Positions 575 through 48,276 of a stretch of DNA of 64,000 bases are shown here, piece by piece; position 1 is the stretch's first letter; every line of letters starts with the position of its first letter. The stretch lies in the NCBI GenBank assembly GCA_001724265.1, contig MEDY01000062.1:1-64000 (forward strand), written 5' to 3'. This stretch comes from Rhizaria sp. SCN 62-66. Its lineage: Eukaryota. The position numbers and the translations under genes were made by a program. The notes beneath the pieces were generated by a model, which did no database searches, was not told the DNA's origin, and saw only the letters and a list, made by a program, of their open reading frames with translations.

Positions 575-2181
575 ATGAGTGCAATCCGCATTCAGGTTCG
601 GACCGAGACAGATCGCCACGTGCTGTCATCTCTTTCGGCTTCGTCAAGCATTGCAGACTTTATCACCGAGGTGCAAAAGACTTTCAGTACAGCGAAAACG
701 CTAGAGTCTGCGTCAGCAGGCTTTCCTCCCCAAGTACGTCGAGCGCTTCTGGCCCTAGCGCCGCATTGATAAGCTGTTTGCATCTTTGACTCAACTCCCA
801 AGTCTCGCGAATCAGTAACTTGTTTTGCTGCCGCACCTTAACACAAACAAAACAACATTCACACACATTGTCGCCCGCCTTTTGCCCATCTTTTTTTCCA
901 CAGCCATTGCCTCTGACGGACTCCACGCGCACTCTGGGCGACTGCGGGCTCAAGACTGGCTCCAGTGTTCTCATCGCTTTCCGCGACCCCCCCACGGACA
1001 CAGCTTCATCTACAGCCGCTGCATCCACGGCGATTTTGGCGCCCGGCTCCGAGCTTGCAACCACACTGCCCTCCGGTGGTGCAGCGGACTTATCTGTGTT
1101 GCCCGGCGCGCGTAAGCAAGTGCTCGACGACAACTCGTGTTTGTTCCACGCGGTCGCCGTCGCGCTCAGCCCCGCCGCCGCGGCGACGACGTACCTCGCC
1201 TCCTCCATTCAGCAGGCCAACAAGCCGCGCGCTGCGGGCAGTGTTGCTGTGCCCGCTGGCGTTGCCGTACTTACCTCGTTGCCCTTTCTGTAGCCCTACG
1301 CGTCCGCCGCCGCCCCGAACACCCCGCTGCCTTCGCTGGCCGCTCTCGAGGCCGCTGCGCCGACTGCGGCCGCGCGCGTCGCCGCGGCCCCGCCCACCGC
1401 GCGCGCGCTGCGCTCGCTCGTTGCACAGGCCGTGCGGCGCGCGGGCGCGGGCGCGGGCACAGCGGCGGCGCTCTTCGGCGGGGCCGAGTCCGGGCTGGCG
1501 CTGGCAGACGCGCTGGGCGAGCCCGCGGAAACGTACGCGAGCAACATCGAGGGCGGCGCGCGCTGGGGCGGCGAGATCGAGCTGCTCGTGCTCGCGCGTC
1601 TTTACTGCGCGCACATCCATGCCATCGACATCGAGACCGGCGCGCTGCTCTCGTACGCGCCCGCCGCCGCGCCAGTGCCGACCGGTGCGGCAGAGAGAGA
1701 GCGCGCGCCGTCGCGGCACATCGTGCTGCTATACTCGGGGCTGCACTACGACGCCTTTGTGCTGCGTGGTGCACCGGGCACCGCCGCGGCGTACGTCGCG
1801 ACCGGGGCCTCGGCCGCGCCGTCAGTCTTCCGACTCGACACCGGGAACGCGCCCGGCACAGACGTCTCGCTCTTCCCCGGCGACGCAGACGCGGCCGACA
1901 TGGACGCTGACGCCGGCGCTGACTCGGGCGCTGCAAGCGTGTCCGCTGGTGCTGCACCGGCAGCGGTGGCGTCGGACGTATCGGTGCGGTACGGCGTGCT
2001 GGACAAGGCGCGCGCGGTGGCGGCGGCGCTGCGCACGGCGGGCGGATTCACCAACACAAGCAAGTTCACGCTGCGCTGCGCGAGCTGCGGCGTGACGCTG
2101 CGCGGGCAGAAGGAGGCGCTGCTGCACTGCGCCGCCACGCAGCACAACAACTTTGAGGAGTACACGCCGCAACAACAGTGA
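575..2181 (+). CDS. OTU1: OTU1/YOD1-type deubiquitinase (ubiquitin-like N-terminus, OTU domain, C2H2 zinc finger), about 478 aa; exons 575-733 and 904-2181; in-frame TAG at 1291-1293
   Basis: Removing intron 734-903 (GTACGT...TTTTCCACAG, phase 0) gives GFPPQ|PLPLTDSTRTLGDCGLKTG. Catalytic DDNSCLF, then WGGEIEL, LLYSGLHYD and FTNTSKFTLRCASC...H...HNNFEE. ORFs 820..1293 and 1432..2181 are the same frame, separated only by TAG. Ends TGA. Confidence 0.9.
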
Positions 2182-2434
2182 ACATTCCGAGAACTGCAGA
2201 GAGTCGTTTCTTACAGCATCGCGTTCTGATTTGGCGCGTTTCTACTTAGTTTTGTGATTTGATTTAGAGCACCAACCTGGCCGCGCTCACGCGTAGGATG
2301 GAAATTATAGTAAGCTTAATCTATTATTCATTTTGTAGTCCATGGAGCGCACTTCGCGTTCTCAGCTAGGTAACCAAATAGTCGAAATAAATCAAGAATC
2401 TTCTGTTCATTTTAAACACGTTATTACAGTTCGT

Positions 2435-5400
2435 TTAATCGTCGTCTGAAGAGAAGCTGTGGAAAGATGCCTCGGAGCCGCGACCGAACACGGCGTCATC
2501 AGCCTCGGCCTGGAACGGGAACGCCGCCTCAGCGTCGACCAGCGCCACCGCGTGCGCGGCCGCGGCATCAGGACTGGGCGGCCCAGCGGCGGCGGCGGCG
2601 ACGGCGGTGTGGCGGGGAGCAAACGCGGCGGGCTCGGGCAGCGGCAGCGGGGGCGTGAAGTGTTCCTCCACCGACGCCACGGACTACACGGTGAACCCCG
2701 CAACAATAGCGGTATTGACAACAAGAGACGAAAGCATGGGTTCGAGAGGCGCCTGGAACGGATCCTGGAACTCATCCTCCTGCGGGTCATCATATTGCTC
2801 ATCGTCGTCATCATCGCCGTTGTTAGCAACGGCATCAGTACGGCCATCGTCGTTACCATCGTTGGTGTGGGACACGTAAGCAGGCTCAGTGGTCTCAACC
2901 TGCACACTTGCACTTAAGGTGCCAGCCTCACGCGCACCATCGCCAACGGCAGAGGAAGCTGCATCGCCAGGCGGCGTGTCGCCGGGCAGTGCGTCATCGT
3001 ACAGCGTGCTGTCGGAGAGCGCGTCGCCTGGGAGCTCGTCCGCGTACTGTGCCTCGGGAAGCACGTTGTCATCGTCGCCACCGACGGGGATGACGCTCCC
3101 GGGCAGCACGTCATTGGCCCACGCGTTCATGTCGTCGTCCAACTTACCGTCGACGCCCGTGTGCCTGCCAAAGCTGGCGTTCTCCGCACTAGGCAGGTGA
3201 GCGGTGCTAGCAGCACTCACAGCAGCGCCCGTGCCAGTGGCCACGTCCGCATCAGCACTGAGATTCCTGTTGGCGCTAACGTTGAACTCCGCGTCGACCT
3301 CGGCGTCCATGTCCATCATATCGTCCAATAGGCCCTCGAGCTCGGCGTCCAAAGGCGCGTCCGCGAGAGGAGCGTTAACAAGTGGCGCGTCCATAAGCGA
3401 CGAACCCGTAAGCAACAACGCGTCCTCGAGTTGTGCGTCCGCAACTTGCGCGTCTCCGACAGGCGCGACAACAGGGGTTTCAGATTGCTTCTCTGTCGCG
3501 ATCTCAAGCTGCTCGGTCGTGACAGCATCACTGGCCTCGTGACAGGGCTCTGCTGCGGGCTCATCTCCGCAACGCACCGCAGCAAGGGACTCATCATTGG
3601 GCTCGTCTGCCACAACAGCAGACTCAGCCGCAGTGGCAACGGACTCAACATCAAGAAGCTGGGAAGCGTCAACCGCATCTGCCTCCTCAACGGCGTCGTC
3701 GGATGCAACACTCTCAATCTCAGAGTGCGCGGCATTGTCGTCCATAGCCTCGCTAGGCATGAACGCGGCATCGACAACAGCGGCGGATCCAGCCATAGAA
3801 ACATCGCCGTGCGAGTACTGCTCTGCAGAATGAATCACGGGCTCAGGTTCCGCGGACCGCTGCGTCACCACGTCGGCACTCGCTACAGCATGGGAGGCAA
3901 AGTGAGACTCAGGAGCCACATCACCCACCGCGCCCGCGCGCGCGGCATCGAGCTGGCGCAGCGCAGCGTTGCGCTGTTGCTCAGCGACCGCACGCAGGGC
4001 CTGCGCCTCGTGCGTCGCCGTCGCGGCGCCGCGCAGCTCGTCAAGCAGCTCGCGCTCGCGGTCCACCGCGCGGTCGCGCACGGCCTTGGCACGTTCCTGC
4101 CACTTGTTCTTGGACACGGAGAGGTCCGTCACCGACTGCTGCAGGTCGCGCGTCAGCGCCGCGAGCTCCTCGGCGCGCGCCGTCACGTCGCCCACCGTCG
4201 CCGCGTGCGCCGCGGCCAGCTCTGCCGCCTCGCTCTGCCGCGCGCGGTGCGCGGCGACGAGCTCGGTGTGCGCGGCCTCGGCGGCGCGGGTCGCCGCGGA
4301 GGCGCGCTCTTCAGCGGCGCGCGCGCGCTCCTCGAGCGCGGCCACAGACTCAGCCGCAGCAGCGTCGCCGCGCTCAGCCGCCGCAGCAGCGCGGCGCTCG
4401 CTTGCGTCCGCGCGCGCCACCGCCTGCGCCGCCGCAGCCTCCGCCTGGTCGGCCCGCACCTCGGCCGCACGCGCGCGCGCCGCAAGTGAGTCCACGCGCG
4501 AGTCGCCCGTTTCCACGCGCGCGTCCGCGGCGGCAGCACGGCGCTCGGCGGCGTCTGCGCGGGCTTCCGCCGCTGCCAAGCGCGCCTCGGCCGAGTCGGC
4601 ACGCGACTCCGCGGCCACGGCGCGGGCCTCGGCAGACGCAGCGCGTGCGTCCAGCGCGGCCGCGCGGGCGTCGGCAGCCCGCGCCTGAGCCGCGCCGTCT
4701 GCGGCCGCGGCTTCGGCAGACTGCGCACGGGCCTCAGCCGACGCCACACGCTGCTCGGCCGCGTCGGTGCGTTGCTCAGCCGCGCCTGCGCGGTGGTCGG
4801 CAGCGGCGGCGCGTGTTGCAGCCTGCGCAGTGCTTGACTCGGCGGTCTCGGCGCGGGCTTCGGCGACGCGCAGACTGATCTCGAGCGCGGTAGCCTGCTC
4901 GAGCGCGGCCACCATCGCAGGATCAGGCTGCACGGCCAACGGATCAGCGGCAGCGGCGGCGGCAGCAATAGGAACAGCAGCAGTAGCAGCAGCAGCTGCA
5001 GCACGCGCTGTGGCTGCCTCGGTCGCCGCAGCCTCAGCCTTTGTCACAGCGGTCTTGATATTGTGATCGTAATCTTGCGCGCGGATCTCAACCTCTGCGC
5101 GCACCTCTGCGCATCTGCGCTGGAACGCGTCCGCACGAAGTGTGGCGCGCGCAGCGTAGATGTACAGCTTGCGCACCAGCGCGCGTGTCTGCTTCAGCTG
5201 CACCGTGGCCAAGAGCGCCTCCGAAGACGCCGCGAGCCGAGCGGACTCGGCACGCTCGCAGGCCGAAGCCGCCTGCGCAGCTGCAGCCTCGGCCTCACCG
5301 TGCTGCAGAATGGCCTCGTGCGCGGTGCGGCGCGCGGCCTCAAGCGCCACGCGCTGCGCCGCGCTGGTGGCCGCCGCCAGCGCCGCGTTGGACCGCAGCA

Positions 5401-8400
5401 CGTCGGCGTCGGCGGCCAGCGTGGCGCGCTGCGCGGCGAGCGCGGATCGCTCCGCGAGCAGCGCCGAGCGCGCGCTGATGTCCACGGCCGCGGCGGCGCG
5501 GAGCCCGTCGACGTCAGCCGACAGCGCGGCGACCTGGCTCGCCAGCAGCGCGTTGGCCGCCGAGGACGCCGTGAACCGCGAGTGCACCGAAGACTGCGAC
5601 GGCGACGGCGACGGCGGTGCACCGTACGGCGCACCATAGAACTGCATCCCGTAGCCGCCGGGGCCACCAATGAGCACAGCGGAGCCCGCATGCGGCGTGA
5701 ACAGCGCATTACTGTGCGCGTTGCTGTGCGCGTTGCTGTGCGCAAGCGGCGTCTGCAGCGCGCGCGGGTGCGGCGGCAGCAGCTGCGCGAGCGGCGCGTG
5801 CGCCAGCGCGATGTGCGCGGGGCCGCGCGCGGACGTCAGCGGCGCGTGTGGTCGGTGCTGCCGCGGCGTGTGCGCGGGCGATGACGGCACCGACGCCGGC
5901 GACACGCCCGCGCCCCCCGCGGCGCCGCCGGAGGACGACGACGACTGCGCGCGCGGCCAGCCCGAGAGCGATCCGCGCGGCAGCGGCAGCGCGTAAGGCG
6001 GGCTGCGGGGCGCAGTCGCGCCCGCGGCGTTTACGACCGACGGAGCGGGGGCGGCGCGCGACATGGCGCTCCCAACCGCTGCAGGACCGCGGCCGGGCGG
6101 GCTGCCCGCGGCGCCCAGAGACTTGTCGGAGACCGAAGTGCCCTGGTGGTGATGATCGGAGACGGAGGCGCCCAGCACCGGCAGCAGCGGCTGCGCCTGT
6201 TTCAGCGATGCCAGCGGCGGCGGCGGCGCGGCAACGGCAGAGAGCGGGGGCAGTGCTGCGCTCGCGACGTCGGGCGCGCTTGCGGGAGCTGAGGAGGCAG
6301 AGTGAAGCTCACCGCTGAGCTAGGGAGCCCAGGTGCCCCAGTCGGCTCTCATGTCCGCATCTGCGTCGGTCGCGACGGCGTGTTGCGCCACCGCGGCATG
6401 CTTAGCAGCAGCAGCTTCAGTGTCGGCGTCAGCCTTCGCCTTCGCGACAGCTTCTTCCTCAGCCTCTACGCGAGCGGCCTCAGCCTCCGTAGCAGCCTGC
6501 GCCTCCGCAGCAGCCTGAGCCTCCGCCTCCGCAGCCTCTGCGGCAGCCTGAGCTTCAGCTGCAGCCTTAGCTTCTGCGACAGCATTGGCTTCAGCCTCTG
6601 CAGCAGCACGGGCTTCAGTGTCAGCCTTTGCCTTTTCAGCGGCCGCAACCTCCACAGCAGCCTTTGCCTCGGCCTCAGCAGCAGCTTTGGCTTCAGCTGC
6701 TACTTTCCCCTCAGATTCAGCTTTCACAACAGCTTCCGCTTCAGCGGCGGCCCTCGCATCAGCCTCTGCCTCCGACTTGGCCTCAACCGCAGCCCTAGCA
6801 ACGGCATCCGCGGCCGCAGCGGCGGCGGTAGCGGTGGCTGCGGCGGCTTGCGCCTCAGCCTCTGCGGTAGCCCGCGCCTCGGCCTCAGCCGCGGCCGCTG
6901 CCCTGGCGTCGGCCTCGGCTCTGGCAGCGCGCGCGTTGGCCTCCACCAGTGCGCGCACCTCTGCGGCCGCGAGCGCCTCGCTGATGCTGCGCACCTCGGC
7001 CTCTGCCGCGGCGGCGCGCGCCTTGGCCTCGGCCTCCGCGGCGGCCTGCGCACCCGCGGCCGCCCGCGCCGCCGCCTCCGCCGCGGTCTTGGCCTCAACC
7101 TCGGCGACCGCGCGCGCCAGCATGTCGGCCTTGGCAATTGCCTCTGCAAGTGACACGGCCTCGGTCTCCGCGGCCGCGCGCGCCTCGGCGGCGGCGGCGG
7201 CGGCCTCGGACACGGCCTGGGCCTCCGCGGCGGCCTTGACGGCGGCGGCGGCGACGGCCTCGCCCTCGGCGCGGAGGCGTGCGGCCTAGGCGGCGGCCGC
7301 GGCGGCAGCGATGGCGGCAGTCTGAACACGCGCCGCTTCGTCCTCAGCCTCAGCAGCAGCGACAGCCTCAGCTTCAGTAGCAGCGGCCTCTGCAGCAGCG
7401 GCGGCCCCGACCCTGACACGTGCGGCCTCAGCTTCGACTTCCGTAGCTTTTGCCTCCGCAGCGCCGGCAGCCTCTGCAGCGCGTTCGGTGTCAGCGCACG
7501 CAACCTCAACAGCCTTTACTCCAGCATCCGAGTTGGTTGCACCAGCTCCAGGCTCGGTCGCGGGCACAGCGGCCGCTGCGCCGGTGTCGGTGTTGGCGAT
7601 GTGGTTTTTCTGAGTTGTATCAGGAGTTATCCAGCACTGCATGTCGTCGAAACCCCACATATCGTAGCCGCCTCCGCCGCCATACGCAGACTCGGGCGCA
7701 GCGGGTGCTGCGACGCGCGCGGCAGTGACTGGAACAACAACAGGGGCCACAGTCCAGGCGAAATGCGGTGCGGGGCCCTGTTGCAGAGGCGCGTCAGCAA
7801 CGGTCGCGCTGTCCTCAACAACTGATCTTTGAGTGTCTGCATTAACAGCGGACACTGCCACATTTGGCTCCGCAGCAGCAGCAAAGTCTTCGCAAGTGGG
7901 CGGCTCAGTAGCAGCAGCCTGAGACACTGCGGGCTCAGTCAGAATGGGCTCAGACACAGCAGACTCAGGAGAAGTAGGCTTAGTCACGGTGAGCTCAGTG
8001 ACAGTGGACTCAGGCACGGCCGCAGAGCCCATGAAAGCTACCCACGGGTCAGTCCAGGTCTCAGTCTCAGCCGCCGTCGCGGCATCAGAGCCTGCAGTAG
8101 CAGGAGCGTAGTCCGTGTTAGCTGCGCCCGCAACCGTGAAAGCGGCCCAGGGGTCGTCCGACAGCGCGCGCGCGGCAACAGGGGCGGCAATCGCGGCGTT
8201 CATACGGGCTTTGTCGTTCGCACTAGCATTATCGCGAGCAGCGTTACCGTCGGCACTGAGGGGCACACCACTGTCAGCTCCCCAAACATCGGCCACCTGA
8301 GCATCGTCGTCAAATGCGTCAGTGTCAACCTCGCCAGCCACTTCAGAGGAGTTGTCTTCGTCGCCGCCCTCGTCGCCCTCGTCCTAGTACTCGTCTTCCC

Positions 8401-9253
8401 ACTCGTCAGCATCCTCGCCAGCATCCGACTCAGCCTCAGCCGCGCTGTCCGCAGACGCGTAGGGCTCGTTGCGTGCGGACAACTCCTCAGCGTTGCTGTC
8501 GGGCAAGTCCGACGGCTCGTAGTGCGCGGGCTCTGCTGCCGCCTCGGGCTCGCTACGTGCCATATGAGCAATGTTCACAGCAGCAGCAGCAGCAGCAGCA
8601 ACAGCGTCGTCGCCACGGCGGTGGCCATGATGAGCAGTGTTGTCGTCCTCGGTCACTGCAACGTCGATGCCGGCAAAGTTCAGCAGCGGCACCGCGGCCG
8701 CGACCGGGCTAACACGGCTTCGCTGCGCAGAAGCAGCGTCAACGCTATTGTCTTCGTCAGAGGATACGGATGACGGCACGGAGAATGAATCTTCCAGATC
8801 GCGGTCGCGGTCACCATCGTCGTCGATGTCATCGTCAACGTCGACATCGCCGTCGTCACCGAGATAGATGTCGGAGCCGCCCGCGGTGCGGCCTCGCACA
8901 GCGCCGCCCGCGCTGGCGCGCGCACTGACAGTGACAGTGGCGTTGGCGGTAGCGTCAGCATCGTTGGCGGGCGCGTTAGATTTGCGGACATTTCGTGGTG
9001 TGGCGTGCGCGCTGGAGCCGGTGGAGAGCGCGTCTGCGAAGAGGTCGTCTTCAGAGGAGGCGTCTGCCGCGCCACTGCGCAGTTGCTCAGGTACTTTAAG
9101 TTCGCTGGGGAGCGTTGTAGAGAACGTTGCGTCGATGAACACGGTGTTAGGTGCGAACTTCTCTGGCGAAAGCACTGGCGTGCCGAACTCTGACTCAGGG
9201 GCGCTCCTGGGAGCGGTTGCAAAGTCCCCAAGCGGAATGGGCACAATGTCCAT
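2435..9253 (-). CDS. Giant low-complexity Ala/Glu-rich coiled-coil protein, about 2272 aa if four in-frame TAG codons are read as sense
   Basis: ORFs 8384..9253, 7286..8341, 6320..7213, 2684..6178 and 2435..2680 share one frame. Each internal break is a single TAG with coding-like sequence on both sides; the final stop is TAA followed by AT-rich sequence. Confidence 0.78.
6400..7500 (-). repeat. Degenerate coding repeat (AAAEAEA/EAKAAAE-type helical units)
   Basis: Translation shows many imperfect Ala-Glu units; boundaries approximate. Confidence 0.75.
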
Positions 9254-14688: not shown

Positions 14689-17600
14689 TTACATAGCGCG
14701 CGGCTTGAGCGACGCGGGCGCGGCGCCCTGGTCCCTGAGCCCGGACTGCGCCCAGAACTCGGCCTCGTACTTGCGGATCTCGGCCGTGGTGAGCGCGACG
14801 GCGAAGGCGGCCTCCATGAGGTCGTCGCCGCCGCGCGCGCGGTGCCACCGGTGGTCGTGCTCGATGCCGCCGAGCGTGTTGAGCACAATCTCGGGCTGAT
14901 GCGCAGCGCGCAGCAGCTCGGGCTCCCGCTGCGCGAGCAGCGCCAGCGCGAGGCGGTACAGCACCTTGTCACCCTCGAGCAGGAAGGCGTCGAGCACGCG
15001 GTAGTAGAGCTCCGGCGCGAAGGTCGCAAAGCGCAGCGTGAGCCAGCGGAACGCGTAGGTCTCAGGGCGCACGCCGTACTCGTCGAGCACGGCGTGGAGC
15101 CGCGGGTGGTGCTTCTTGAGCAGCGCCGTGAAGACATGCATGTACAGCTGCGCGCGCGGCATGCCCTCGAGGTAGAGCCCGCGGAGGCGGTGCTGCGCGC
15201 CGTTGAGCAGCCGCTCGACGAACCAGAAGGCCATCTCCTCCGGCATGAAAAGCAGCGCGGGCGACGCGAGAAGGTCCATGCCCTGCACGTAGCCCACGGC
15301 CGGGTCGTGCACCGAGTACGCGCGCAGCACGTTGTACAGCGCGGCTTGGCCCTGGCACACTACGGTGCGCGACCCGGCCTCGGGCGAGTGGAACACGATG
15401 TGGTCCTGCAGCACGCGCGGCAGGTCCTTGCGGATCTGCAACTCATCGTGCGCCGCCACGGGCTTCGCCAGCAGCGACTGGTAGTATCGCGACGCGCCCA
15501 GCCGCTCGCGCGCGCGGCCCAGCGAGAGCAGCGCGGGCCACACCACGCCGCGCAGCGCCGGCGGTACGCCCTTGCGCACGCGGCGCTTGAGCACGGCGAA
15601 CGACGACGGCTGCGTCGGCGCCGCAGGGCCCTCCGGTGCGAGAAACTTGGGCCAGTGCTCAAGCATCTGCGTCCACTTCATCTCGCGCGACACGTCCCGC
15701 GCGCTCAGCCGCGCGCGCTCATCCGCCGATACGGTCTCAGCAGGCTCGCAGTTGGCACCACCCGCGGCGGCGGCGTTCGTGGAGCCCGCCGCGCCGTCGC
15801 CCGCGGCGCCCGTGCCGTTGGCGTTGGGGTTGAGGGAGCGGCGGCGCGACTTGTCCTGCATGGCCTCCTTGGCGCGCGCAAGCTCCTTGATGCGGCCGAA
15901 CCGGTCGACCCAGTAGTGGCCCAGCGCGGAGAGGTCCTGGCGGGTCACCGCAAGCGGTTCCAGGTCCTCGTCTGGCAGCAGGCCGCGGCGGTCGACCATG
16001 CGCATCGCCGTCGACACCGACGGCGCCGCAGACAGCGAGCCAGACGGCGCGTGTGCCAGAGCGTAGCTCGCCTCAGCGCCGCCGTCATTGCCGTTACCAT
16101 TCGTGCCGTTGGTGGCCGTGGCGGTGGCCGTGTGCTGGGAGGAGTCGTCGCCGGCGGATACGGAGGACGGCGCGGCGCTGGCGCTGATGCTGGGGCGCGC
16201 GGCGGGCGTCTGCAGGCCCCACCGGTGCCCAGAGCCGTCGCCCGCCGTCGCGCCGCCGCTGCCGCCAACTGGCGTCGTGGGCGCCGCCGCGGCCGAGTCG
16301 CTCTCGCTCTGGCTCTGGCTCGCAGCGTTGGCGTTGGCAGGGCCAGTGCTGTGGCCATTGCTGTCCTTGCCGGCGCCAGAGGCCAGCGCCGCGGGCGAGG
16401 CGTGCAGCCTCAGCCCCGCCACCGCCGTCGCCACCGAACTCGAGCCCCCAGCCGTCACCGGCGCCGTCGCAGTCGTCGCGGTGGCGTCAGCCTCCGAGGT
16501 GGGCGCGGCGCTGGCGCGGCCGGAGCGCAAGATGTCGGTCTGCGTCGCCACCGCTCCGGGGTCCGCGTCCGCGTCCGCGTCGGCGTCCGCCGCGTCGGCG
16601 TCTGCGGCGGCGGCGGCCGAGTCCAGCACACGCACGAAGTGGCCTTGGCCTGGATAATAGAAGTCCGCGTAGAGCGCGGCGACCGCTGCGGCGGCGCGCA
16701 CGTTGGCCGACACCGCGGGCGCCAGCAGCGCCGTCGCCGCCTCCAGCGCAGGGCTCGTGGGCCGCCCACAGTCACTGCTCGCCTGACCGGCCGCAGCGCC
16801 GGCGCCAGAGGCAGCGCCAGAGGCGGCGTGAGAGCTGGACGCGGACGCGGAGGCGGCGGCCGTGGCGGCGGCGGCGGAGGAGGCGGCGGAGGACACGGCC
16901 CAGGCGACCGACGGCGGCACCTGATGCAGCGGCACTGCAAGTGCGGCCGCCGCCGCTGAAGAGGAGCAGCACGACGCGGAAGACCGCGACGAGGCCGAGG
17001 GGCTGGGCGGCACCGGCGGGCCGTGGCTCAGCCCTGCGCCGGAACTCGTGGTGCCCACTGTCACTGCGGCGCCGGAACCCGTGGGACCCGGGCCCGCGGG
17101 GAACGACGCGCTGCTCGCGCTGTCGCGGTGTGTGGCGGCGGCGGCAGCGGCGGCGGCGGCGAGCACCGGCGCGGGGACCGTGGCGTAGGCCTGCATGTGC
17201 AGCCGCGGCGCCGCGGCCCCCGCCGCCGTACTCTGGCGCGGCGTGCGCAGCGAGCCCCCGCCCTGGCCCTGTGCCTGCCCAGTGCCAGAGGCGCCGGGGC
17301 CCTGGCCGGCGGGCCCCAGCGCGGGCGAGCCGAGGCGGGCGCCAGCGGGCGACGAGGGCGCCGACGGCTGGCCACCGCCGCCGCCGCAGTGCCCGCAGCT
17401 GCTCCCACCCGGAGCACAAACGCAGGCGCGGTGCGCGGACGCCGAGAGCGGGCACGGCGCGAGGTAGTAGCTGCCGCTCTCTGCCGCGGCGGCCGCTGCG
17501 GCGGCGGCGGCTGCGGCTGCGGCGGGCGCGCCGGTGGCGATGGCGGTGGGCAGCGCGGGCTGCGGCGCGATGACGACGTGGCGCACGCCGTCGGCCGCGG

Positions 17601-18684
17601 TGAAGACGGCGACGCCACAGCGCGCGGGCGAGTCCACAAGCGCGCCTTCAACGTGCAGCGCGCGCGGCTGCTGCGCCCACCGCTGCGCCAGCGCGTAAGC
17701 CTGCACCGCGGGCGGCAACTGCGCCAGCGTCAGCGTCGCAGCGAACTGACCCGCTCCAGCCCCGGCCCCCGTGCCGCTGCCGTTGCCGTTGCGCTGCCCG
17801 CACGCCGAGGCCAAGGCGGACCCGGAGGCGGAGACTGAGGCGGAGGTGGAGCCGCGGCGCAGCGAGCCCCGGCGGAGCGAGCCGCGGCGGCGCGCGCTGC
17901 TGGAGCTGGGGAAGCCGGGGCCGCCCGCCGCGGTGGCCGACGAACACGCGCGCGCGCTGTGCGGGGCGACCGGAGGCACCAGCGCCGCGGAACCGTGCGC
18001 AGTGCTCGCCACTGCTGTGGCGCCGTGAGGGCAGAGAAGGGCTGCAGCGGAGGCGGAATCGTCAACGTTGACCGAGAGCGGCGGGCGACTCGGCGGGGGA
18101 AACGACGACGAGCCGCCCGCCGCCGCCGCCGCCACAACGTCGCCATTCACACTGGTAGTCGCGGTGCGCGCCGTCGGGGACGTGAGGCTGCTCGCGTGGG
18201 GGCGCGCGGGGTTGCCGTTGCTGTTGTTGTTGTTAGGGTTGTAGTTAGGATTGTTGTTGTTCTGCTGCGCGTCGTCGGGTCCGTCGAGCGCGTCGTTGGC
18301 GTCGTCGTCGCGGAGCAGCGCAAAGTTGGTAAGCACGGTCATGGCAGACATGGCGGCAAGCGAGGGGAACGCCAGCCCGGGGTCGAGCCCGCCAAGCGCA
18401 GTCAGCCACGCAGGCTCCGGACCGAACGGGCCCGCGGACACCGCCGCCACAGAAGCGGCCGACGCGGCTGATGCAGAGGCGGGGTCGGCGGCGCAGGAGT
18501 AGACGACGTGGCGCGTGTACGAGTTGGAGCCCATGACAAGGCGCTCCTCGCCGCCGCCGTGGTGGAGGTGGCCCGAAGCAGCGCGCGGGGACAGCGATGC
18601 ACCGGCTCCACCGACGCCAGCGGCAGTGTGGTGCGACTGGGACGAGGGCGGCGGGGCGCGGTGCGCCGCCGCGAACGTAGACAT
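14689..18684 (-). CDS. TBC-domain Rab GTPase-activating protein with a long low-complexity N-terminus (1331 aa)
   Basis: RVRKGVPPALRGVVW, IRKDLPR (Arg finger), GYVQGM (Gln finger), EEMAFW, YAFRWL, LDAFLLEGDKVLYRLAL. Ends TAA. Confidence 0.9.
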   Translation of the reverse strand: MSTFAAAHRAPPPSSQSHHTAAGVGGAGASLSPRAASGHLHHGGGEERLVMGSNSYTRHVVYSCAADPASASAASAASVAAVSAGPFGPEPAWLTALGGLDPGLAFPSLAAMSAMTVLTNFALLRDDDANDALDGPDDAQQNNNNPNYNPNNNNSNGNPARPHASSLTSPTARTATTSVNGDVVAAAAAGGSSSFPPPSRPPLSVNVDDSASAAALLCPHGATAVASTAHGSAALVPPVAPHSARACSSATAAGGPGFPSSSSARRRGSLRRGSLRRGSTSASVSASGSALASACGQRNGNGSGTGAGAGAGQFAATLTLAQLPPAVQAYALAQRWAQQPRALHVEGALVDSPARCGVAVFTAADGVRHVVIAPQPALPTAIATGAPAAAAAAAAAAAAAAESGSYYLAPCPLSASAHRACVCAPGGSSCGHCGGGGGQPSAPSSPAGARLGSPALGPAGQGPGASGTGQAQGQGGGSLRTPRQSTAAGAAAPRLHMQAYATVPAPVLAAAAAAAAATHRDSASSASFPAGPGPTGSGAAVTVGTTSSGAGLSHGPPVPPSPSASSRSSASCCSSSAAAAALAVPLHQVPPSVAWAVSSAASSAAAATAAASASASSSHAASGAASGAGAAAGQASSDCGRPTSPALEAATALLAPAVSANVRAAAAVAALYADFYYPGQGHFVRVLDSAAAAADADAADADADADADPGAVATQTDILRSGRASAAPTSEADATATTATAPVTAGGSSSVATAVAGLRLHASPAALASGAGKDSNGHSTGPANANAASQSQSESDSAAAAPTTPVGGSGGATAGDGSGHRWGLQTPAARPSISASAAPSSVSAGDDSSQHTATATATNGTNGNGNDGGAEASYALAHAPSGSLSAAPSVSTAMRMVDRRGLLPDEDLEPLAVTRQDLSALGHYWVDRFGRIKELARAKEAMQDKSRRRSLNPNANGTGAAGDGAAGSTNAAAAGGANCEPAETVSADERARLSARDVSREMKWTQMLEHWPKFLAPEGPAAPTQPSSFAVLKRRVRKGVPPALRGVVWPALLSLGRARERLGASRYYQSLLAKPVAAHDELQIRKDLPRVLQDHIVFHSPEAGSRTVVCQGQAALYNVLRAYSVHDPAVGYVQGMDLLASPALLFMPEEMAFWFVERLLNGAQHRLRGLYLEGMPRAQLYMHVFTALLKKHHPRLHAVLDEYGVRPETYAFRWLTLRFATFAPELYYRVLDAFLLEGDKVLYRLALALLAQREPELLRAAHQPEIVLNTLGGIEHDHRWHRARGGDDLMEAAFAVALTTAEIRKYEAEFWAQSGLRDQGAAPASLKPRAM

Positions 18685-25105: not shown

Positions 25106-28100
25106 TCACTGCAACAGCAGCGTTGCCTCAATCTCGACACGAAAGCTGTCGCTGAGAAGGCGACGTTTGAGCTTTTGCAGCAGCCGGGGCGCAACGTCAA
25201 GCGCGTTGCGCGGCACCTCAAAGTAAACTAGGCTTTCTTCTGCGCCAGCCCCCGCGGCCGCGGTCGCTGCAGCAGCCTTAAGCGCCAGGAAGCGCGTGTT
25301 GGCCCACATGGTGGCGACGCGCACGCCGCTGCTGCCGCGTTCTGGGTCAATCAGGTCAAACGCGAAGTCCCCCGCAACGGGCAGTCCGCCACCAAGGTCG
25401 TACTCGACGGCCACGGTGCGCGCGGCGCCCGGCGCAGCGGCCTCGTCAGAGACGCGAACGCGCACGTCAGGGCAACCCGCGTGCCAGCGCCGGGTGTCGA
25501 AGCTCGGCTCCGGTGCGGGACCCGTGGCGTCGACGTCGTGTGCGCGCACGCTGAACGCCACCGGCGGCGGGCGGCGCGCGGGCACGGCGGGCGGGCCGGC
25601 CATCCCGGGCGCCAGCGACGGCGGCGGCGCGACCGGGCCGCCCGCGGCGTCGGAGAAGGACGAGCCCGCGGCGGAGCCACTGTCAGAGTAGAAGCTGGCG
25701 TCCGAGTCCGAAAAGGAGGCAGCTGCGGCAAGTGCTTCGTCGAGCGGGGGCGTCACACACGGCGTGGGCACTGACGCGGGAACGCTGCCGTCGGGCGACT
25801 GCGCCAGCGCAGAGCTGGGCACCGGCGACGCAAGATCGCTGGCGCCGTCCTCCTCCTCCGCAGTGGCGATGGCTGCGGCAGCCGCGGGGCGCCAGGACTG
25901 AGAGTGCGTGTTGAGCGGCGACGTCTCGCTGATGGGCGCGAGCGAGCTGGCGACGGACTGGACGTTGAGCGCGCCGCTGCGCGAGTGCGGCACCGGTGCC
26001 ACAACAGGCGTCGGCGCATCGGCGGTCGAGCGCGAGAGTGAGAGCGGGGGCATGAAGCCTCCGGGCGAGTGCGAGAGCTGCGAGAGCGTGCGGCCGCGGT
26101 CGGAGCGGCCAGCGAGCGATGGCGACTGCGATCCCGACGACGACGCTGACACGTCGCCGCGCGCGGGCGAGAGAGAGCCCCGCGGCAACGATAATACCTG
26201 GGGACTTATGCTCTGGCGGGCACTGCACGTGGCGCGCGGCGACGACAGAGCAACCATCAGTTGCGGCGACTTGGCGGCGACGGAGGCGAGCGAACCCTCG
26301 GTCGCGTAGTGCATCTTGCGAAGACGGCCGTGATGCACATCAACAGCGACGGCAACCGCAGTGGGCAGCGCAACAATCGTGCTGTTCGTAACATCAGGAG
26401 ATCCAGCTTGCGAGTGTGCCCCAACAGTAGACGCAGGCGTGAGCGTGGCCAGAGGGCTGGTCGGCGGTCGGTCCGCGGCGTAGCTGCGCACCTGCGTTGC
26501 TGGCGTCAACACCGAGCTGCGCGCAGGCGTGCCAAGCACAGAGCCAACCTGTGATGCGGCGGCCGGGGCCATGATAGGGCGCGGGGCGGTCACGTCGCCG
26601 ATGTTGAAGGACTGCGACAGCGTGCGCGGCTCCCAGCGCGGCAGCGGTGTGCGCGAGCCACCCAGGATTTGCTTCAGACGCGAGCTGGTCGACGTGGAGA
26701 CGGAGGACGTGGCAGGCGCCTCGGCATCGTACGTGCGTGCCTTGCTCGACACGGTGTCGGCGGGAATGCCACTAAAGCGGATGCGCTTGAGCAACAGAAT
26801 CGGAGCAGGCCGGGCCAAATCAAGCGTGCGCACGACAGACTCACACTCACAGTTGGCGCTGCCAGCGCACGGGCACATTGTTGGGGCGTCGGTGGGCTCC
26901 ACAAAGCTGATCGCACTTGCATCACCGACAGCGGCCATGGCAGCAGCGGCAGCGAGCGGCTTTGCGGCGCACAGAAGCCAATAGGCAGCATACTCGAGAT
27001 AACGGACTTGCGAGGGCAGGAAGGGACTTTCACCGTCGGTTGTGCGCTTCGAAAGTACAATTGCCATCGCGGCCTGAACAGCTGCGCGTGCACCAGCGGC
27101 GCACTGCGCATGTGACAACACGTCACCAGGCGCAGTGCCGCGGGGCAACAGAGGAACAGCGCCACTGGAGATAAGGTACAACGCGGCCAGCACACCAGCG
27201 CGGGCCACACCCTTGCGCGACTGCAGGAAGACCGCGTTTTGAGGGTGCTGCGCAAACCAATCGCGCATGCGTGCGCACGCGCCTAGTAAGTCACCGAGCG
27301 TCGGCACACCGCCACCATCACGCGCGCGCGCAACAGAAATGGACGTTGAGCGGCCCTCGTAGACGGTGTTCCACACCGAGACCGGCAGACCGGGGCGACT
27401 CGAGTTGCCTTGCAGGTGCGGGGGCGCATCAACGCGGAAGACGAGAGCGCGCGCAGGGTGACGCAGGTTCAGCAGCGCAGTGAGTTCATCAAGTCCGTTG
27501 CGTGAGCTTCCCGCGGCGACAGTGCCTTCCATCGGCTCGGCCACAAGCGCCAAACGCGGCGTCACATAGGCAAGATCGAGGTCAAAACCATCGTCACGGT
27601 ACCGACGACGCGCTGCGCTGGCCTTCGAGCCCAGCAGAGAGCGTAGACGGCTACGCATAAAGGCGCCAATGCCGCCCGCGGTTACCGCGCGCGCGGGCGC
27701 GAGCAGACCAACAACACGCGTGCGCACTGAATGTGGCAGCGCAAGCGCGGGCGCGGAGATACTTCGAGCAATGGCCGGCGACGGTGTCTCGAGCGCTGCG
27801 GCTGCGGCTGCAACGCGGCCTTGCGGGGCGGGCGACTGCACAGCCGGTGCCGGTGCAGGAGAGCTGGGGGTCGGCGTCGCAACAGTGGACCGGCGCAGGA
27901 ACGCGGGCATCTCGCCACCGTTGTTAGCGGGGCTCACAGCGGCGCTGGTGTGGGATGAATCAAGCAATGACGACGAAGACGCGGAAAATGCGTGATTGCT
28001 GAGCACAGCCGCGGCGGCGCCAGTGCGGCGCTGTGAGTGCGATTGGATAAACTGCCCGAGCGAGACCGGCAAACGCGGGTCGGGCAGTCCCGGCAGTAAG

Positions 28101-31100
28101 ACAGCAACACAGAGTTCGACTTCAGCAACGGGTTCCCAGGAGCCGCCGGGCAGTGCGCGCCACACAGGGTACCAGGCGGGCCGGTAGGGCGTCGCCAGCG
28201 CCGACAGCGGCAGCGCGGAAACGCCGATAGAGGCATCCGCCGCGGGCTCGCGCAGCAAGTCGTACGCATGCGCAGCACCCGTGCGCGAGGAGGCCTTGGT
28301 GTTCCAGACCTGCGCACGGCTCTCGTCGCCAAAGACGCAGCGCGAGGAGTGCAGCATGAGTTCAACGCGCAGTGCCTGCGTAGTGGGGGCCAGCGGGAAC
28401 AGCGGGTGTGCGTGCGGGCCTGCGTTGTGCGTGCCGGCCTCGCCCGCGCCAACGGGTGACGCGGAGCAGCAGCCCGCAAGACTGTTGAGTTCGCGCCAAG
28501 TGGGCAGACTCACAGTTGCAGCGCTCGCGGTGGAGTCGGCGAGCAAGATCGCGCCCGCGCGCTGCGGCGCCGACAGCGGCGTGACGGGCACGGTGCGCGA
28601 GCCGGGCGTGGTGAGCGGTGTAGGTGGACTCAGAAACGCGCGGCCGTCGACGCAAACGCGCGCAGACACGGTCGCGGTAACCGTGGCAGTGACGTCGCCG
28701 GGCGTGCCCACAGGCCAAGTCAGGTTCAATGGCAGCGACGCCGACGGCAACGCGCGCGCACCACAGAGCTCAACGGCGAGCAGGCGGTCGACTGCGCCGG
28801 TGCACGTAGCGCCCGCAGTGAGCGCGCCAGGCGCGGGCTCGCCGGCCAGCCAGCCCGTCGTGTGCAACATGCCAGCGTCGGCCGACAGGAGCGAAGGCAC
28901 GGACTTGGTCTTAGCGGAGCTCGACGGAGCGGCAGTGACAGCAGTGGAGCCAGCCGCGTCGACAAGGGCGCGCAGGCCGGCGGCGGCGTTGGGCGGACCA
29001 GCAAACGACAACGCGGGCACCGTAACAGCAGCAGCGTTTGCAACATGTCGGCGGCCGAAGCGACGCGCAAGCAATTGCAGCTCCTTGGCAACGCGGTCCG
29101 GCGGTGCAGTGGAGCACAGCGCAACGCGTTCAGTGTGCAAACACTGGGGAAGCGCCCCGCGGGGTGATGCGCTTGCCTTGGGCGTGGGCTCATAATCACT
29201 GCCGCCGTCATCCTCTTCGACGCCGATGCGCGCCACAGCGGACAGTGCGGCGCCGGCAAGTGCAGTCACGGTTGCGTTCGCGGCGGGCAGGTTCAGGTGG
29301 TACAGCGGGGCACAGAGCGGGCAAGGCTCCTCGGCGCCAGAGCTGGAGCGCGCGGCAAGAGCTCGTGCAGACGCGGAGGAAGGCGTTGACACGCTGATCG
29401 ACGGCCGGTTGAAGCTGCTGGAAGATGAAGCAGCGGTGGAGCGAGCCGGGGACGCGGCGACGCTGCGGTTGCTTGCAGGCACAATAGAAGACACCAGAGC
29501 CGGGGCAAGCGTAGGAGCGGGCGCGAGTGCATCAGCCATGGCTTGCGAGGCGATGAAGCGTGAAAAGACGTCGCGCTCGACAAGACGCACGATGGCAGCC
29601 GCGGGCTCGTGGAACACCCAGGGCGCGGCAACGCCGGCCGCGTCCACAGCCCGCTCCGCGGCAACGCGCGTCGGCGCGTCGATGTTAACCTGCCGCGATG
29701 CGCCTTGGCGCACGAACTCGGCGCAGACGCGCTTCGCAGCGGCGTCAACGGCGGCCCATGCAACCGCAGAGGCAGTACTCGACGGCTCACGCGCGCGACG
29801 CGGTGCAGCCAGCAGCGCAAGTGCGGGCGCAGAGCGCAAGTGGCGCATCAGCAGCGGCGCAGTGACGCGGAGCACAGCGCCGCCGGCACCGGGGATGGGC
29901 ACCTCGACGCCCGCCATGAGGGGCGTCGGCGCCGCGCCGGCCGTCGGTGGCAGCCAGCCGACCGGCGGCGCGGGTGGCGCAGGCAGCGAAAACGGGCGGC
30001 TTGAGTCCGCAGCATTCTCAGCAGCGACGGCCGCGTTGTCGACCCAGCGGCGCACGCGGTGGCCGTGCTCAACGAGCGTGGCGGCGGGTGCAGGCGGCGG
30101 ACACGGCATCGTGGTCAGCGCTGAGCGCGGGACTTCGCCCGTCGACAGCGCGGGAAGACCGGGGTTCTGCACAGTCGCAAGCCGAGGCGCGTCGGCTACG
30201 GGAGGCAGCAGCAGGCGCACGGCGGCCGCGGTGTCTGCCGCCGCCATCGCGTCACTGTGCGCCGTCTCCTTGGTGTCAGCCGGAAGGTCGATTGGCGCAG
30301 GGGCCACACCGGCGGGGTAGACCACCGAGAGCGAGACGAGCGCGTCGAGCGCGCGCGCTGCGGTGGCGCGCCAAGAAGACGTTGCTGCGAGGCTGACCGA
30401 CGGCGCGCGCACGCGGGGCGTGGGGGGTGCGGACTCGCCATCTGTCTTTAAATCGACCGCCTCCGCCGCCGTTGTTGCTGCTGCGGCGGCGGGTGAGACA
30501 ACGATGACGGCGGGAGCTGCGACACCAATGGACTGCGCGGCGTCGTGCGCCCAGTCAGCAAGCGCGAGCGCTGTGGCAGCCTCCCAGAAGGCACGCGCGG
30601 CGTCGAGAAACGCCGCTGACTCGGCGCAGTGGCGCGAGGCAAGAAAGCGCAACAACGCGGCACGAGGACGCGGCTGCGACAAAACCCACTGCAACGACGG
30701 CACGGAACCGATGGCGCGCGCACCAGCCGCAGGGGCAGCGCCGGAGGCGACGGCAGCGGCAGACGCGGGCGCGGGGGCCTCGGAAGCGTCAGAGCCGAGT
30801 AGCAGCAGGCGCGCGGGCGCGGTGGCCGGCGCGGTCAGCGCGATGGCGGAGGGTGCTGGAAGCATCGAGACGGAGTCCGTGCCGACTGCGCGTACGAGCG
30901 CGAAGCGCAGCGAGGCAGCTGCCGGCGCGGCAAGCGCAGCGTCAGCTGTGGCGTCGGCGATAGACGGCGAGGCCGTGCTGCTCCGGCGGTGCGAGGGCCG
31001 GCGCGGGCGCAGCGGCGACGCCACGGGGGATCCCCGTCCCGCAGCGGCACCTGCAACAGAGCCGGCAAGAGAGGGCGGCGGCGCATTCGTAGCGACAGAA

Positions 31101-34009: not shown

Positions 34010-34048
<39 letters not shown>

Positions 34049-34456
34049 AGCGCGGCTAGAGTTTGTAAAAGCAAGCGGCAGCGTGGAACCCGGGGTTGCT
34101 GTCATCCGCGCCGCAGCCTCGGACTCAGCCACCAAGGGCGCCTGCGACAACTGCGAGTGAGTGTGCGACTGGGTTGTCGGAGCAGGACGGGTGGGGGCAG
34201 TGAAGCTCGGCGCGCGCGGCAGCACACGCGTAGGACCAGGACCAGGATCAGCAGGGCAAGCAGGAACGCCGAACGGAGCGGCCTTGGTGGTGGCGGTCTG
34301 GGGGCCGGCAGGCGCGGGCGAGGCCGCACTGTCGGCGGGGCGGGCCGGGGAGGGGGCCGCGCGCGTGGGTCCAGTTGGCTGTTGGGGTGCGGGCGAGGCA
34401 GTGGGGCGCGACGGGGCCGCACGGCTAGGGGCTGAGTTCGTAGCGGGCAAGCTCAT
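25106..34456 (-). CDS. Giant protein (3116 aa): Pro/Ser-rich N-terminus, interrupted RGS-like domain, probable C2 domain, PTEN/tensin-like phosphatase domain with degenerate active site, C2-tensin-like C-terminus
   Basis: RGS halves SLQWVL..LLRFLASRHCAESAAF and AEFVRQGASRQVNID..LVERDVFSRFIAS. PTEN-like RRRYRDDGFDLDLAYVTPRL, RNGLDEL and PSQVRYLEY. Ends TGA. Confidence 0.8.
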
Positions 34457-37061: not shown

Positions 37062-37093
<32 letters not shown>

Positions 37094-42297: not shown

Positions 42298-44658
42298 TCA
42301 GGCGATATTTGTGCGGAGCGTGGCCGCGATGGCGTCACGCTCGCGCTGGCACGCCAGCTGGGCCATCCACTCCACATTGGCGAACCGTGACACCGGGACT
42401 GGCGTTATCGACGCCGCGACCGCGCTGCCAGCGCTCGCAGCCGCGGCGCAGTCCGCGTCGGCGGGGTTTGCACCAGTTTCTGCATCAGCGTCTGCGTCTG
42501 CATCGGCGTTGACGGGGAGGTCCGCGGCGGCGCTGGCGGAGAGCGGGTCGGTGTAGAGCCGCATGCGCATCTGCAACAGCCGCAGCCGCTGCAGGAGCCC
42601 GCCCGCGCGCGGCACCGCGGCCTCCGCGGGCGGCGTTGAGTGCTCGGCGTCGAACGCCGCGTCCGCGGCCACCACGGAACCCAACGGCGGCCACAGCGCC
42701 TGCGCCTGCGCCTGGGCGTGCTTGAACGCGGCGGTCGCAACCGCGGCGGCAGCGGTGGACGCCGCGGTCGCGCGGTCCGGGGAGCCCTCTTTGGCCTCCA
42801 GCCAAGCCGCAGCAACGTCTGCGTCAGCGGCGTCACTGTGCGCGGCGTGTGCAGCGCCGTGGCGCTCGCGCGCAGAGCGGAACATCGCGCGCACCGCGTC
42901 GTCAGCACGCATAGCGGCGCCGCCCTTGTAGTGCGTGTGCGTGCGGTGTGAGTGGCGCTCGCCGAAGCCGAAGCCAAGCGTGCCAGTGCAGTCGCTGTAC
43001 TCGTCGCCGAACGGGCACGCGTCGGCCTCGTCGTCGACGGCAATGCCGGCGCCGTCAAGCGCAGACATGCGGTCACCGCCACGAGCACGCCGCGACTGCT
43101 GTTGTAAGTTGTGGCTTCTGCTGTGGTGATTAGTGTTTCTGGTTGCGCCGGCTCTGTGGGTGTTGACGCTAACGCTCGCGTTCGCCCCGTGAATAGCGGC
43201 GAGTGCGGCGGGCGACACGCCCTCGCTGAAAGCCTCGACATCGCCCAGACTCGACATCCATGCGGGGACGTCGTCACGCTCATGGTCACGCTGCTCACGG
43301 TCGCGTTCGCGCTCGCGCTCGAGCTCGCAGGCGTTGGCCTCTGCAAACTCAGCGTCAGCCTCGGCCTGGCTCTGCAACTGCAACTGTGATATGCTCTTAA
43401 CAGAAGGCGTGTGTTTCGCAGCAGTGTGTGTTTGCTGCGGTCGTGCAAGCGACTCAAGCACTGCGGCACGCGGGGCTGCCGTGACCACATCGCCACTCTG
43501 CTGTTGATGTTGGTGCTGGATCTGCGTTTGTGGACTTAGTAACAAACGCGCCAGCGCGGCGTGATCTTTCAACCGCGAAAGCAGCGCGGACGGCGCGACA
43601 GCGGCTTCCGCATCAACCGTCTCCGTGATTGGTGAGGGCACAGCTGCTGTTTCAGCGATGGCGGAGGGGGAGTCGGGTCCAGCCGCGGCGACAACAGCAC
43701 TAGAGCGAGTGTTGGACTCGCAGTGCTAGTCGCATACGGTGCAGAAACCGTCCTCAGTGCTTGTCCGGACACGCAACTCTGCAGTTGTCGCAGCTTCAGG
43801 GGCAGTGGCGTTCGCAGTGACCGATGCGTGCGGAGCAACAACGGGGGCGGCGGCTTTAGCAACAGCAGGTGCGGGCAATTGCATCACACGCGCATGTTGC
43901 TGGAGTTGATGATATTGCTGCTGCTGTTGCTGCTGTTGGGCTGCAAGCGACATCGTTGCAGACTGCGGCAACATAGCATTGTGTGCGAACCAGGACGACG
44001 AGGGCTGTGCAAGCTGCATCTGTGACCTCTGCCAGTGACTTGCGGGCGCCATAAGCGCCGCGTGTGGATGCGACAGTTGCGCCGGCAGCAGCATCGGAGC
44101 CGGTGCCACAAAGCGCGACTGCTGAGACTGGCTGTGATGGGGTTGCTGCGACTGCTGCGCTGCGTAATGGTGGGGCAGCGCTGGCGCATGGTGCTGCGCG
44201 GGCGACGGCATAGGGCCGTAATGCTGCGCCACGGGTTGTTGCGCGGCCTGCACTGGCCAGGCAAGCGCCTGAGCCTGGGCCTGGGCCTGGGCCTGTGCGT
44301 GCACGGACGCCGCGTGTGGCGAGGGCAAAGCGGGCGAATGAGAGCAGAGCGCGGGCGGGGTGGCCGCTGAGGCTTCATAGAGCGAGTCCCAGCCAGCGGG
44401 GCTCTCAAATAGCGCCGAGGCGGGGTTCACAAGCAGTGCGGGGCCGTGATGGGCTCCCGGGTGGACGCGCGTCAACGATTCAGAGCGCGCGAGGACGGGG
44501 GCGGTGACGGCTGTTGACTCGGGGCGCGGGGGGCGCGCCACCGCCTTGCGAGCAAGCGCGGCCTCCGAGATGCGCGAGTTGAGATGCACACCTGTCGCAC
44601 TAAAGAAAACACCCTTGTTCATAGCACCAGCGCCTGCTGCGCCGGGGCCGAACGACAT
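42298..44658 (-). CDS. Hypothetical Gln/Ala/His-rich protein, about 786 aa, with one in-frame TAG at 43726-43728
   Basis: ORFs 43726..44658 and 42298..43641 share a frame: FCTVCD*HCESNTRSSAVVAAAGPDSP. No AT-rich spacer lies between them; ends TGA at the edge of the GC-rich block. Confidence 0.72.
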
Positions 44659-48000: not shown

Positions 48001-48276
48001 CCCGAGCAGGGGTTCGCGCTGTGCCCGCTCGTGCAGTGGCTCGAGGCGCTGACGCTTTTCGCGCCACGCCGCCGCAGCTTTGACGCTGATCTGGGCTCCT
48101 GGAACGGCAACGCTGCGCTGCGCACGCCGGCTGCACGTGCCGCGGCGCGCAAGCCCACTGCGGCGACGCTCGAGGCTGCTGGCGCGGAGTGGCACGCTGA
48201 GCAAGTCATGGGCTTCGGCCGCGAGGCCTCCCAGTTTGATTTCCGCTGCGGTACGCCCGCATTTATGAACACTTGA
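45039..48276 (+). CDS. Secretory-pathway histidine acid phosphatase, about 1005 aa; exons 45039-45221, 45335-45398, 45506-48276
   Basis: Signal-peptide-like N-terminus. Exon 2 encodes [17 protein letters not shown] (RHGxRxP). Exon 3 has [33 protein letters not shown] and VRVVYNG. Both introns begin GTACGT with compatible phases. Ends TGA. Confidence 0.88.

Follow-up and report, generated by a model that had tools for sequence, protein, structure and literature searches.

The stretch of DNA analysed here, called the window throughout, is the first 64,000 nucleotides of contig MEDY01000062.1, which corresponds to C62 in a eukaryote assembly of 714 contigs and 34.9 Mb. Its minus strand carries a 2,272-codon reading frame that is interrupted by TAG codons only, and we consider it very probable that UAG has undergone a genuine stop-to-sense reassignment in this genome. 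Probably, UAG is read as glutamate by a tRNA-Glu-like transfer RNA with a CUA anticodon while UAA and UGA are kept as stops, and this is likely to be a new genetic code variant. The original prediction, made from the sequence alone, had implied one gene whose TAGs are read through, as opposed to a pseudogene or a gene split by introns. That reading is supported by the genome-wide usage of stops, by TAG codons in conserved domains including that of the release factor eRF1, and by a tRNA gene with a CTA anticodon. The prediction gave neither a residue nor a mechanism; the evidence points to glutamate inserted by a tRNA-Glu-like suppressor.

TAG codons in the frame and across the genome

Re-translation agrees with the earlier description of one 6.8-kb frame interrupted by four TAGs only and places it on the minus strand, which had been left unstated. 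The frame runs from an ATG at 9251-9253 to a TAA at 2435-2437 (9253 to 2435 in all) and contains exactly four internal stops, each of them TAG, with the junction peptides that were first reported.

8384..8386, minus strand: in-frame TAG, codon 290, within an acidic run
7286..7288, minus strand: in-frame TAG, codon 656, within an Ala/Glu repeat
6320..6322, minus strand: in-frame TAG, codon 978
2684..2686, minus strand: in-frame TAG, codon 2190, the sole one of the four with a half-plausible splice-acceptor appearance

Three of these sites were found without any difference in shallow DNA contigs from run X4, which belongs to another study.

2200-3092: X4 contig bridging the TAG at 2684
6214-6459: X4 contig bridging the TAG at 6320
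8095-8570: X4 contig bridging the TAG at 8384

In the poly(A) RNA run X5, contig 6230-6544 spans the TAG at 6320 with no gap and no differences. A second RNA contig (2669-3027) is colinear across the would-be intron at TAG 2684, with just 15 bases beyond the TAG, and the one over TAG 8384 has just 20 bases on one flank. The TAG at 7286 was bridged by none of the contigs listed. Reads mapped at 80% likeness were mostly Ala repeats of other organisms, and long clean pieces alone were used. Because the X4 contigs and the X5 RNA contig keep TAG unchanged, these codons are not assembly errors.

All 13 complete genes of the window were observed to end in TAA (5) or TGA (8) and none in TAG, while in-frame TAG forms 6 of 16,053 codons and is held by three of the 13 genes. 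Two further TAG-containing frames lie in the window.

42298..44658, minus strand: second window gene with one in-frame TAG (43726-43728); ends in TGA, no Pfam family
790..2181, plus strand: OTU1-like deubiquitinase frame with one in-frame TAG (1291-1293); ends in TGA

The TAG at 1291-1293 comes before both the Pfam OTU match and the zinc finger, and an intron acceptor is possible at this place. A coding model over 752 kb, in which the loci were partly picked for holding TAG, gave 121 stops with coding sequence upstream, and the frame was still coding after 15 of 19 TAGs as against one of 102 TAA or TGA codons (Fisher p=1e-14). Where modelled genes ended and non-coding DNA followed in this set, TAG was the stop in 3 of 102 cases, compared with 21% TAG among intergenic stop triplets. 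One of the three lies opposite a longer gene and another just within an intron, both being artefacts, so that one remains. With looser cut-offs, TAG ends rose to 7/141 and 16/181, which by eye were mostly doubtful frames. The rarity of TAG in coding DNA suggests that the reassignment is young or inefficiently decoded. We also noticed that a purine directly follows the stop in 85 of 99 modelled TAA/TGA gene ends.

In-frame TAG was found without gaps in eRF1, six kinase matches, a UBC-J1-type E2, SUV3, two USPs and a Ras-like protein, in a tally that leaves out one EF-hand match and the multi-stop UCH/SNF2 matches. All ten of the checkable TAA/TGA codons within domain matches lie in intron-like DNA. 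The genome has GT-AG introns, and six of 11 Pkinase matches with TAG turned out to be intron sequence and were dropped, as were most matches in other families; where kinesin, DEAD, TBC and SNF2 had a lone TAG-only match, it proved to be an intron acceptor. No TAG was found in WD40 (149 matches), AAA (22) or ABC (20) domains, nor within the long dynein frames. Alignment of dynein paralogues was rejected as a source for the residue since each of the seven TAGs examined close to the long frames proved to be in an intron or beyond the limits of the gene.

Two TAG-rich groups were also noted. One is a family of kinase plus helical-repeat genes (L072, L073 and L074), in which the L072 copy has three TAGs, one of them opposite Trp in both paralogues, and is apparently frameshifted. 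The other is an open reading frame (ORF) at L207:1-2088 (G000:C681) with an internal duplication, a ubiquitin-like domain and two in-frame TAGs. Its C-terminus appears to us reminiscent of the intramolecular chaperone of viral fibres, and the ORF is possibly a mobile or virus-like element.

The CUA tRNA and the release factor

A pattern search of the genome for a CTA anticodon returned four matches, of which one is a tRNA (G000:C84:76008-76080). This gene is single-copy, full-length by Rfam (58 bits), scores 117.8 in ARAGORN and is followed by a T run. It matches generic RF00005 and the organism's own tRNA-Glu; the ARAGORN label 'Pyl' goes to any CTA tRNA under its bacterial code. Among 46 other tRNA sequences of the organism the nearest is tRNA-Glu(CUC) with 46 of 72 positions identical, the next has 40, and the two tRNA-Gln sequences have 33 and 29. 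The identity of 64% to tRNA-Glu(CUC) is below the 69-93% reported for the suppressors of Oligohymenophorea sp. PL0344. The first five acceptor pairs are those of the main own tRNA-Glu(CUC) and tRNA-Glu(UUC). In addition, the CUA tRNA has U11-A24, U13-G22, A46 and no base 47, all of which are listed for glutamate identity in Escherichia coli (PMC9976931; this and the other papers cited are drawn on in part). The own tRNA-Gln(CUG) also carries U11-A24 and U13-G22 and therefore the argument for glutamate identity rests on the acceptor stem.

In its anticodon loop the CUA tRNA carries the pair C32-A38; position 38 is C in the main tRNA-Glu genes of the organism. In human tRNA-Glu(CUA), charging by glutamyl-tRNA synthetase (GluRS) is normal, C32-A38 lifts UAG suppression more than 20-fold and an engineered version inserted about 95% Glu (PMC12204705). 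The tRNA found here probably arose from tRNA-Glu by an anticodon change (C36→A), would be charged by GluRS and would outcompete the divergent eRF1 at UAG. No UUA or UCA tRNA was seen in the 22 of 24 pattern matches examined, of which one is tRNA-Lys(UUU) and the others are no tRNA, with a pattern that is blind to introns and long arms. Likewise, the 25 of 41 long-spacer pattern matches examined contained no long-arm CUA tRNA and only the known Leu(CAG) and Ser(UGA) tRNAs. Minimum free energy folding was uninformative, as it gave no cloverleaf for the CUA tRNA or for tRNA-Glu(CUC). Elsewhere in the tRNA set, a further tRNA-Glu(CUC) (L113) scores low and has an anticodon loop that looks eight-base, and the tRNA-Ala(AGC/TGC) genes (L033, L036 and L081) start with GTG instead of the usual GGG and have non-standard T loops.

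The genome search for eRF1 gave one eRF1 gene (L078, contig G000:C63) and one second locus, which we take to be Pelota-like.

L078:4464-4466 (G000:C63), minus strand: in-frame TAG in the eRF1 N domain

This TAG is located 77 codons into an exon that aligns gap-free to 117 homologues, and it is identical in a second assembly (L165). As eRF1 is an essential single gene it is not a pseudogene, unless the assembly lacks a paralogue. A metagenome scan with eRF1 gave 32 loci, among which were one identical copy, which is genomic and not a transcript, and no close relative. A TAG would fall by chance in a 430-codon gene with p≈0.04-0.13 at the observed rates, a post hoc figure. The protein carries T32S and G57S at positions where Thr and Gly were observed to be kept in 117/117 homologues, including the 84%-identical P0004; T58K and M34V are common to that relative. 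Thr32 forms a bond with the G of UAG, and Iotanema has Gly at this position (PMC5304391). The unusual substitutions of the protein lie around the GTS and TASNIKS motifs.

The residue at UAG and competing explanations

Our alignments show Glu to be the leading residue in two of the three best columns. The eRF1 column with the TAG contains 106 Glu, 10 Asp, one Val and no Gln in 117 homologues, and the hinge column of the organism's own kinases (25 sequences) has 19 Glu, three Asp and no Gln. Asp, not Glu, leads the UBC column, where 150 sequences include 98 Asp, 15 Glu, 13 Ser, 12 Asn and one Gln. At the TAG position of SUV3, Asp is present in human and Ser in a fungal chain. Four TAGs sit in acidic runs and two sites of the 2,272-codon gene fit Glu. 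Summed Pfam scores relative to Glu were lower by 3.1 bits for Gln, 2.9 for Lys, 7.9 for Asp and 8.8 for Ser over 11 sites, and by 13.7 for Tyr, 15.4 for Leu and 19.8 for Trp over 10 sites. Leucine, as in the exLh code, was rejected on this deficit of 15.4 bits and on the short variable loop of the CUA tRNA. We therefore regard glutamate as quite likely to be the residue inserted. New TAGs would come from several neighbouring codons (GAG, CAG and AAG), with CAG→TAG favoured as a transition, and would last mostly in weakly constrained proteins or at tolerant sites.

A number of observations weigh against reading UAG as glutamate through this tRNA. The lead of about 3 bits over Gln and Lys comes mostly from one kinase site, and the nearest solved relatives of that kinase (KSR) have Ser at the hinge. 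Three TAGs sit in poly-Gln runs, and a ubiquitin-like copy, which is under purifying selection (27 silent and 8 other changes), has TAG where the ubiquitin of the genome has CAG. By eye, the TAGs of three paralogous kinase genes align with Gln, Lys, Asp/Gln, Thr, Asp and Trp. When 34 sites were scored with a neighbour-context model, E-minus-Q came to -2.7 bits, between the 13.6±7 expected of pure Glu and the -18±9 of pure Gln; its expectation-maximisation weights were 0.41 for Gln and 0.22 for Glu, and neither context nor mixture modelling told the two residues apart. At the TAG column of eRF1, the nearest relative (P0004) carries Val. Furthermore, human eRF1 carrying T32S shows normal release at each of the three stops, and the residues that the same work ties to UAG (E55, Y125 and N129) are intact here (PMC3632111). 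RNA support consists of one shallow contig, and the poly(A) library it comes from may contain DNA.

The eRF1 may still be able to recognise UAG. Because there is one tRNA gene, TAG is very rare and eRF1 itself contains one, a young or still contested reassignment is plausible. One version of this, which we hold to be possible but rather unlikely, is an early-stage reassignment in which a single tuned tRNA-Glu(CUA) competes with a UAG-reading eRF1 and the UAG of eRF1 acts as a negative feedback switch. Excess eRF1 would then truncate its own synthesis and thereby set the stop/sense balance of the whole genome. Plants regulate eRF1 through readthrough and nonsense-mediated decay (PMC5397192), in an arrangement that differs from the one here.

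It is much less probable that UAG is sense but encodes Gln or a Glu/Gln mixture, with the CUA tRNA charged by glutaminyl-tRNA synthetase (GlnRS) or UAG read by tRNA-Gln. The poly-Gln sites, the ubiquitin-like copy and the weights of the context model would fit this, U35 counts among the determinants of GlnRS and amber tRNAs in bacteria frequently accept Gln (PMC9976931), and Gln is the commonest outcome of UAG reassignment (PMC11687900). However, the own tRNA-Gln sequences are the least like the CUA tRNA, and Gln occurs once or never in each of the three best columns. TAGs in Gln contexts may be expected under any code at tolerant sites, given the CAG→TAG transition. For a human tRNA-Glu(CUA) variant the residues inserted were Glu, Lys and Met, with Gln unreported in the part of PMC12204705 consulted.

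We think it quite improbable that UAG is still chiefly a stop, with a weak suppressor tRNA giving low readthrough and mostly truncated products. The single tRNA gene, the scarcity of TAG in window codons and its lack in long dynein frames, the harmless T32S and an ORF end (L074, minus strand, 5899) that could be a true TAG stop would all be compatible with it. Against this, TAG has nearly gone from gene ends, the sole eRF1 found has a TAG in its N domain and the 2,272-codon gene would need four consecutive readthroughs. In addition, the base after the 34 TAG sites (+4) is mixed (14 C, 8 G, 7 A and 5 T), with no fixed readthrough motif.

The prediction had also taken the lack of TGA and TAA as an argument against a pseudogene. 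The pattern is true, but single-step nonsense changes from the codons of the 2,272-codon gene give TAG in 70% of cases, and four TAGs among four internal stops, at p≈0.24 under plain random decay, have no significance alone; the four-TAG frame is beyond chance because of the genome-wide evidence, not of the frame alone. The prediction had further described the TAGs as having no polypyrimidine acceptor or AT-rich spacer; of the four, codon 2190 alone has a half-plausible acceptor appearance. Frame-keeping GT-AG pairs over codons 290, 656 and 978 have a lowest GC of 60-69%, compared with 37-40% in two eRF1 introns and 52% in the first. A decaying pseudogene under the standard code, or TAGs that are spliced out or turned into Trp codons by A-to-I editing, would suit the decay probability, the lack of a homologue to vouch for the protein, the many domain-match TAGs that proved intronic and the frameshifted L072, but is most improbable since it leaves the missing TAG stops, the CTA tRNA and the TAG in the gap-free eRF1 exon unexplained, the candidate introns are GC-rich, the RNA contigs are colinear with TAG kept and Trp fits Pfam worst.

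Known codes, the encoded protein and the organism

UAA and UAG are nearly always reassigned jointly. A search of the literature, in which most subscription papers were outside reach, found no case of UAG=Glu with UAA as stop. The UAG-only nuclear codes listed in the part of PMC11687900 consulted have Leu, Gln or Ser, and Glu at UAG without UAA=Glu is described in that of PMC10553269 only alongside UAA=Lys. The latter case, Oligohymenophorea sp. PL0344, resembles the present one in UAG=Glu and in tRNA-Sup(CUA) genes that are most like tRNA-Glu (PMC10553269). It differs in having UAA=Lys, UGA as the sole stop and ten CUA tRNAs, whereas here UAA is a main stop, one CUA tRNA and no UUA tRNA were found, and the host genome is not AT-rich in the manner of ciliates. 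In peritrich ciliates and Blastocrithidia (UAR=Glu), Glu at UAG is alike but UAA is also recoded (PMC5304391, PMC11687900).

UAG alone is recoded in the rhizarian exLh (Sainouroidea; UAG=Leu, UAA stop), which probably shares the supergroup. However, Leu fits poorly here, the tRNA is without a long variable arm, and UAG is in most exLh genes sampled but rare here (PMC5304391). UAG alone is also recoded in Iotanema spirale (UAG=Gln, UAA stop, eRF1 T32G), where, as here, eRF1 Thr32 is changed and the change is absent from the nearest relative (PMC5304391, PMC9161772). The present eRF1 has the conservative T32S together with G57S, the residue is likely Glu and the lineage is unrelated. Phyllopharyngean ciliates (UAG=Leu or Gln), Protocruzia tuzeti (Gln) and Scotinosphaera (Ser) have UAG as sense and UAA as stop as well, and two of the genomes contain a CUA suppressor tRNA. 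Glu is listed for none of them in the part of the source consulted, and UAG is in 78-91% of phyllopharyngean genes compared with 3 of 13 window genes (PMC11687900).

UAG=Glu with UAA and UGA as stops would probably be a rare, young code change. If true, UAG=Glu with UAA as stop would be a new code table and likely a second independent UAG change in Rhizaria. As TAG is lost from gene ends yet scarce within genes, codon-capture and ambiguous-intermediate models could be set against each other in this genome. The natural CUA tRNA has the same C32-A38 change as the engineered therapeutic Glu suppressor, and standard annotation breaks up the genes of this organism, eRF1 among them.

The 2,272-residue protein matched no Pfam family and had no homologue among 8,000 candidates, which had lengths of 1,249-3,976 only. 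With TAG read through, both of its ends are acidic and of low complexity by composition, and its two long Ala/Glu-rich regions are probably helical coiled coil.

6404..7456, minus strand: first Ala/Glu-rich region, about residues 600-950, coiled coil suggested by composition
3884..5536, minus strand: second Ala/Arg/Glu-rich region, about residues 1240-1790, coiled coil suggested by composition

Atlas look-alikes of the second region were generic coiled-coil clusters (0.89-0.91) with few shared features. Several DPW/DPF-like and WxxF motifs are present, which we take to be reminiscent of clathrin-adaptor-binding proteins, and our tentative best guess is a membrane-traffic scaffold. Weak constraint probably explains the four TAGs in this protein.

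The organism, which is probably a rhizarian flagellate, occurs in runs from bioreactors and wastewater that belong to three studies, with runs X6 and X8, where its shares are small, left out of the habitat inference. Given this recurrence, it may be possible to obtain RNA and peptides. The genome has about eleven dynein heavy-chain loci, and the organism is therefore likely to be flagellate. In a quick MTR4 tree (52 rows from 120 matches, midpoint root, support by SH-aLRT only) it falls in a clade with Plasmodiophora as the only named member (SH-aLRT 95). The ubiquitin genes begin Met-Ser-Met and no polyubiquitin junction was seen in them; the start is compatible with the rhizarian insertion at that junction (PMC12930898). 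These ubiquitins (L205, L206, L208 and L028) are unusually divergent and monomeric, with short tails past Gly-Gly, and polyubiquitin was not found.

A candidate contig of the organism (L124 and L164; G000:C706) carries very divergent AT-rich ribosomal DNA with nine matches to group I introns; an ORF within its small-subunit region is reminiscent of a His-Cys homing endonuclease. Elsewhere in the window, ordinary proteins (TBC, RGS-containing, CDC20 and histidine phosphatase) are encoded at 14689-18684, 25106-34456, 36350-42016 and 45580-48276, and they are several-fold enlarged by Ala/Ser/Pro-rich low-complexity inserts. Intron-free frames of great length, the longest reaching about 10,000 codons, occur commonly in the genome.

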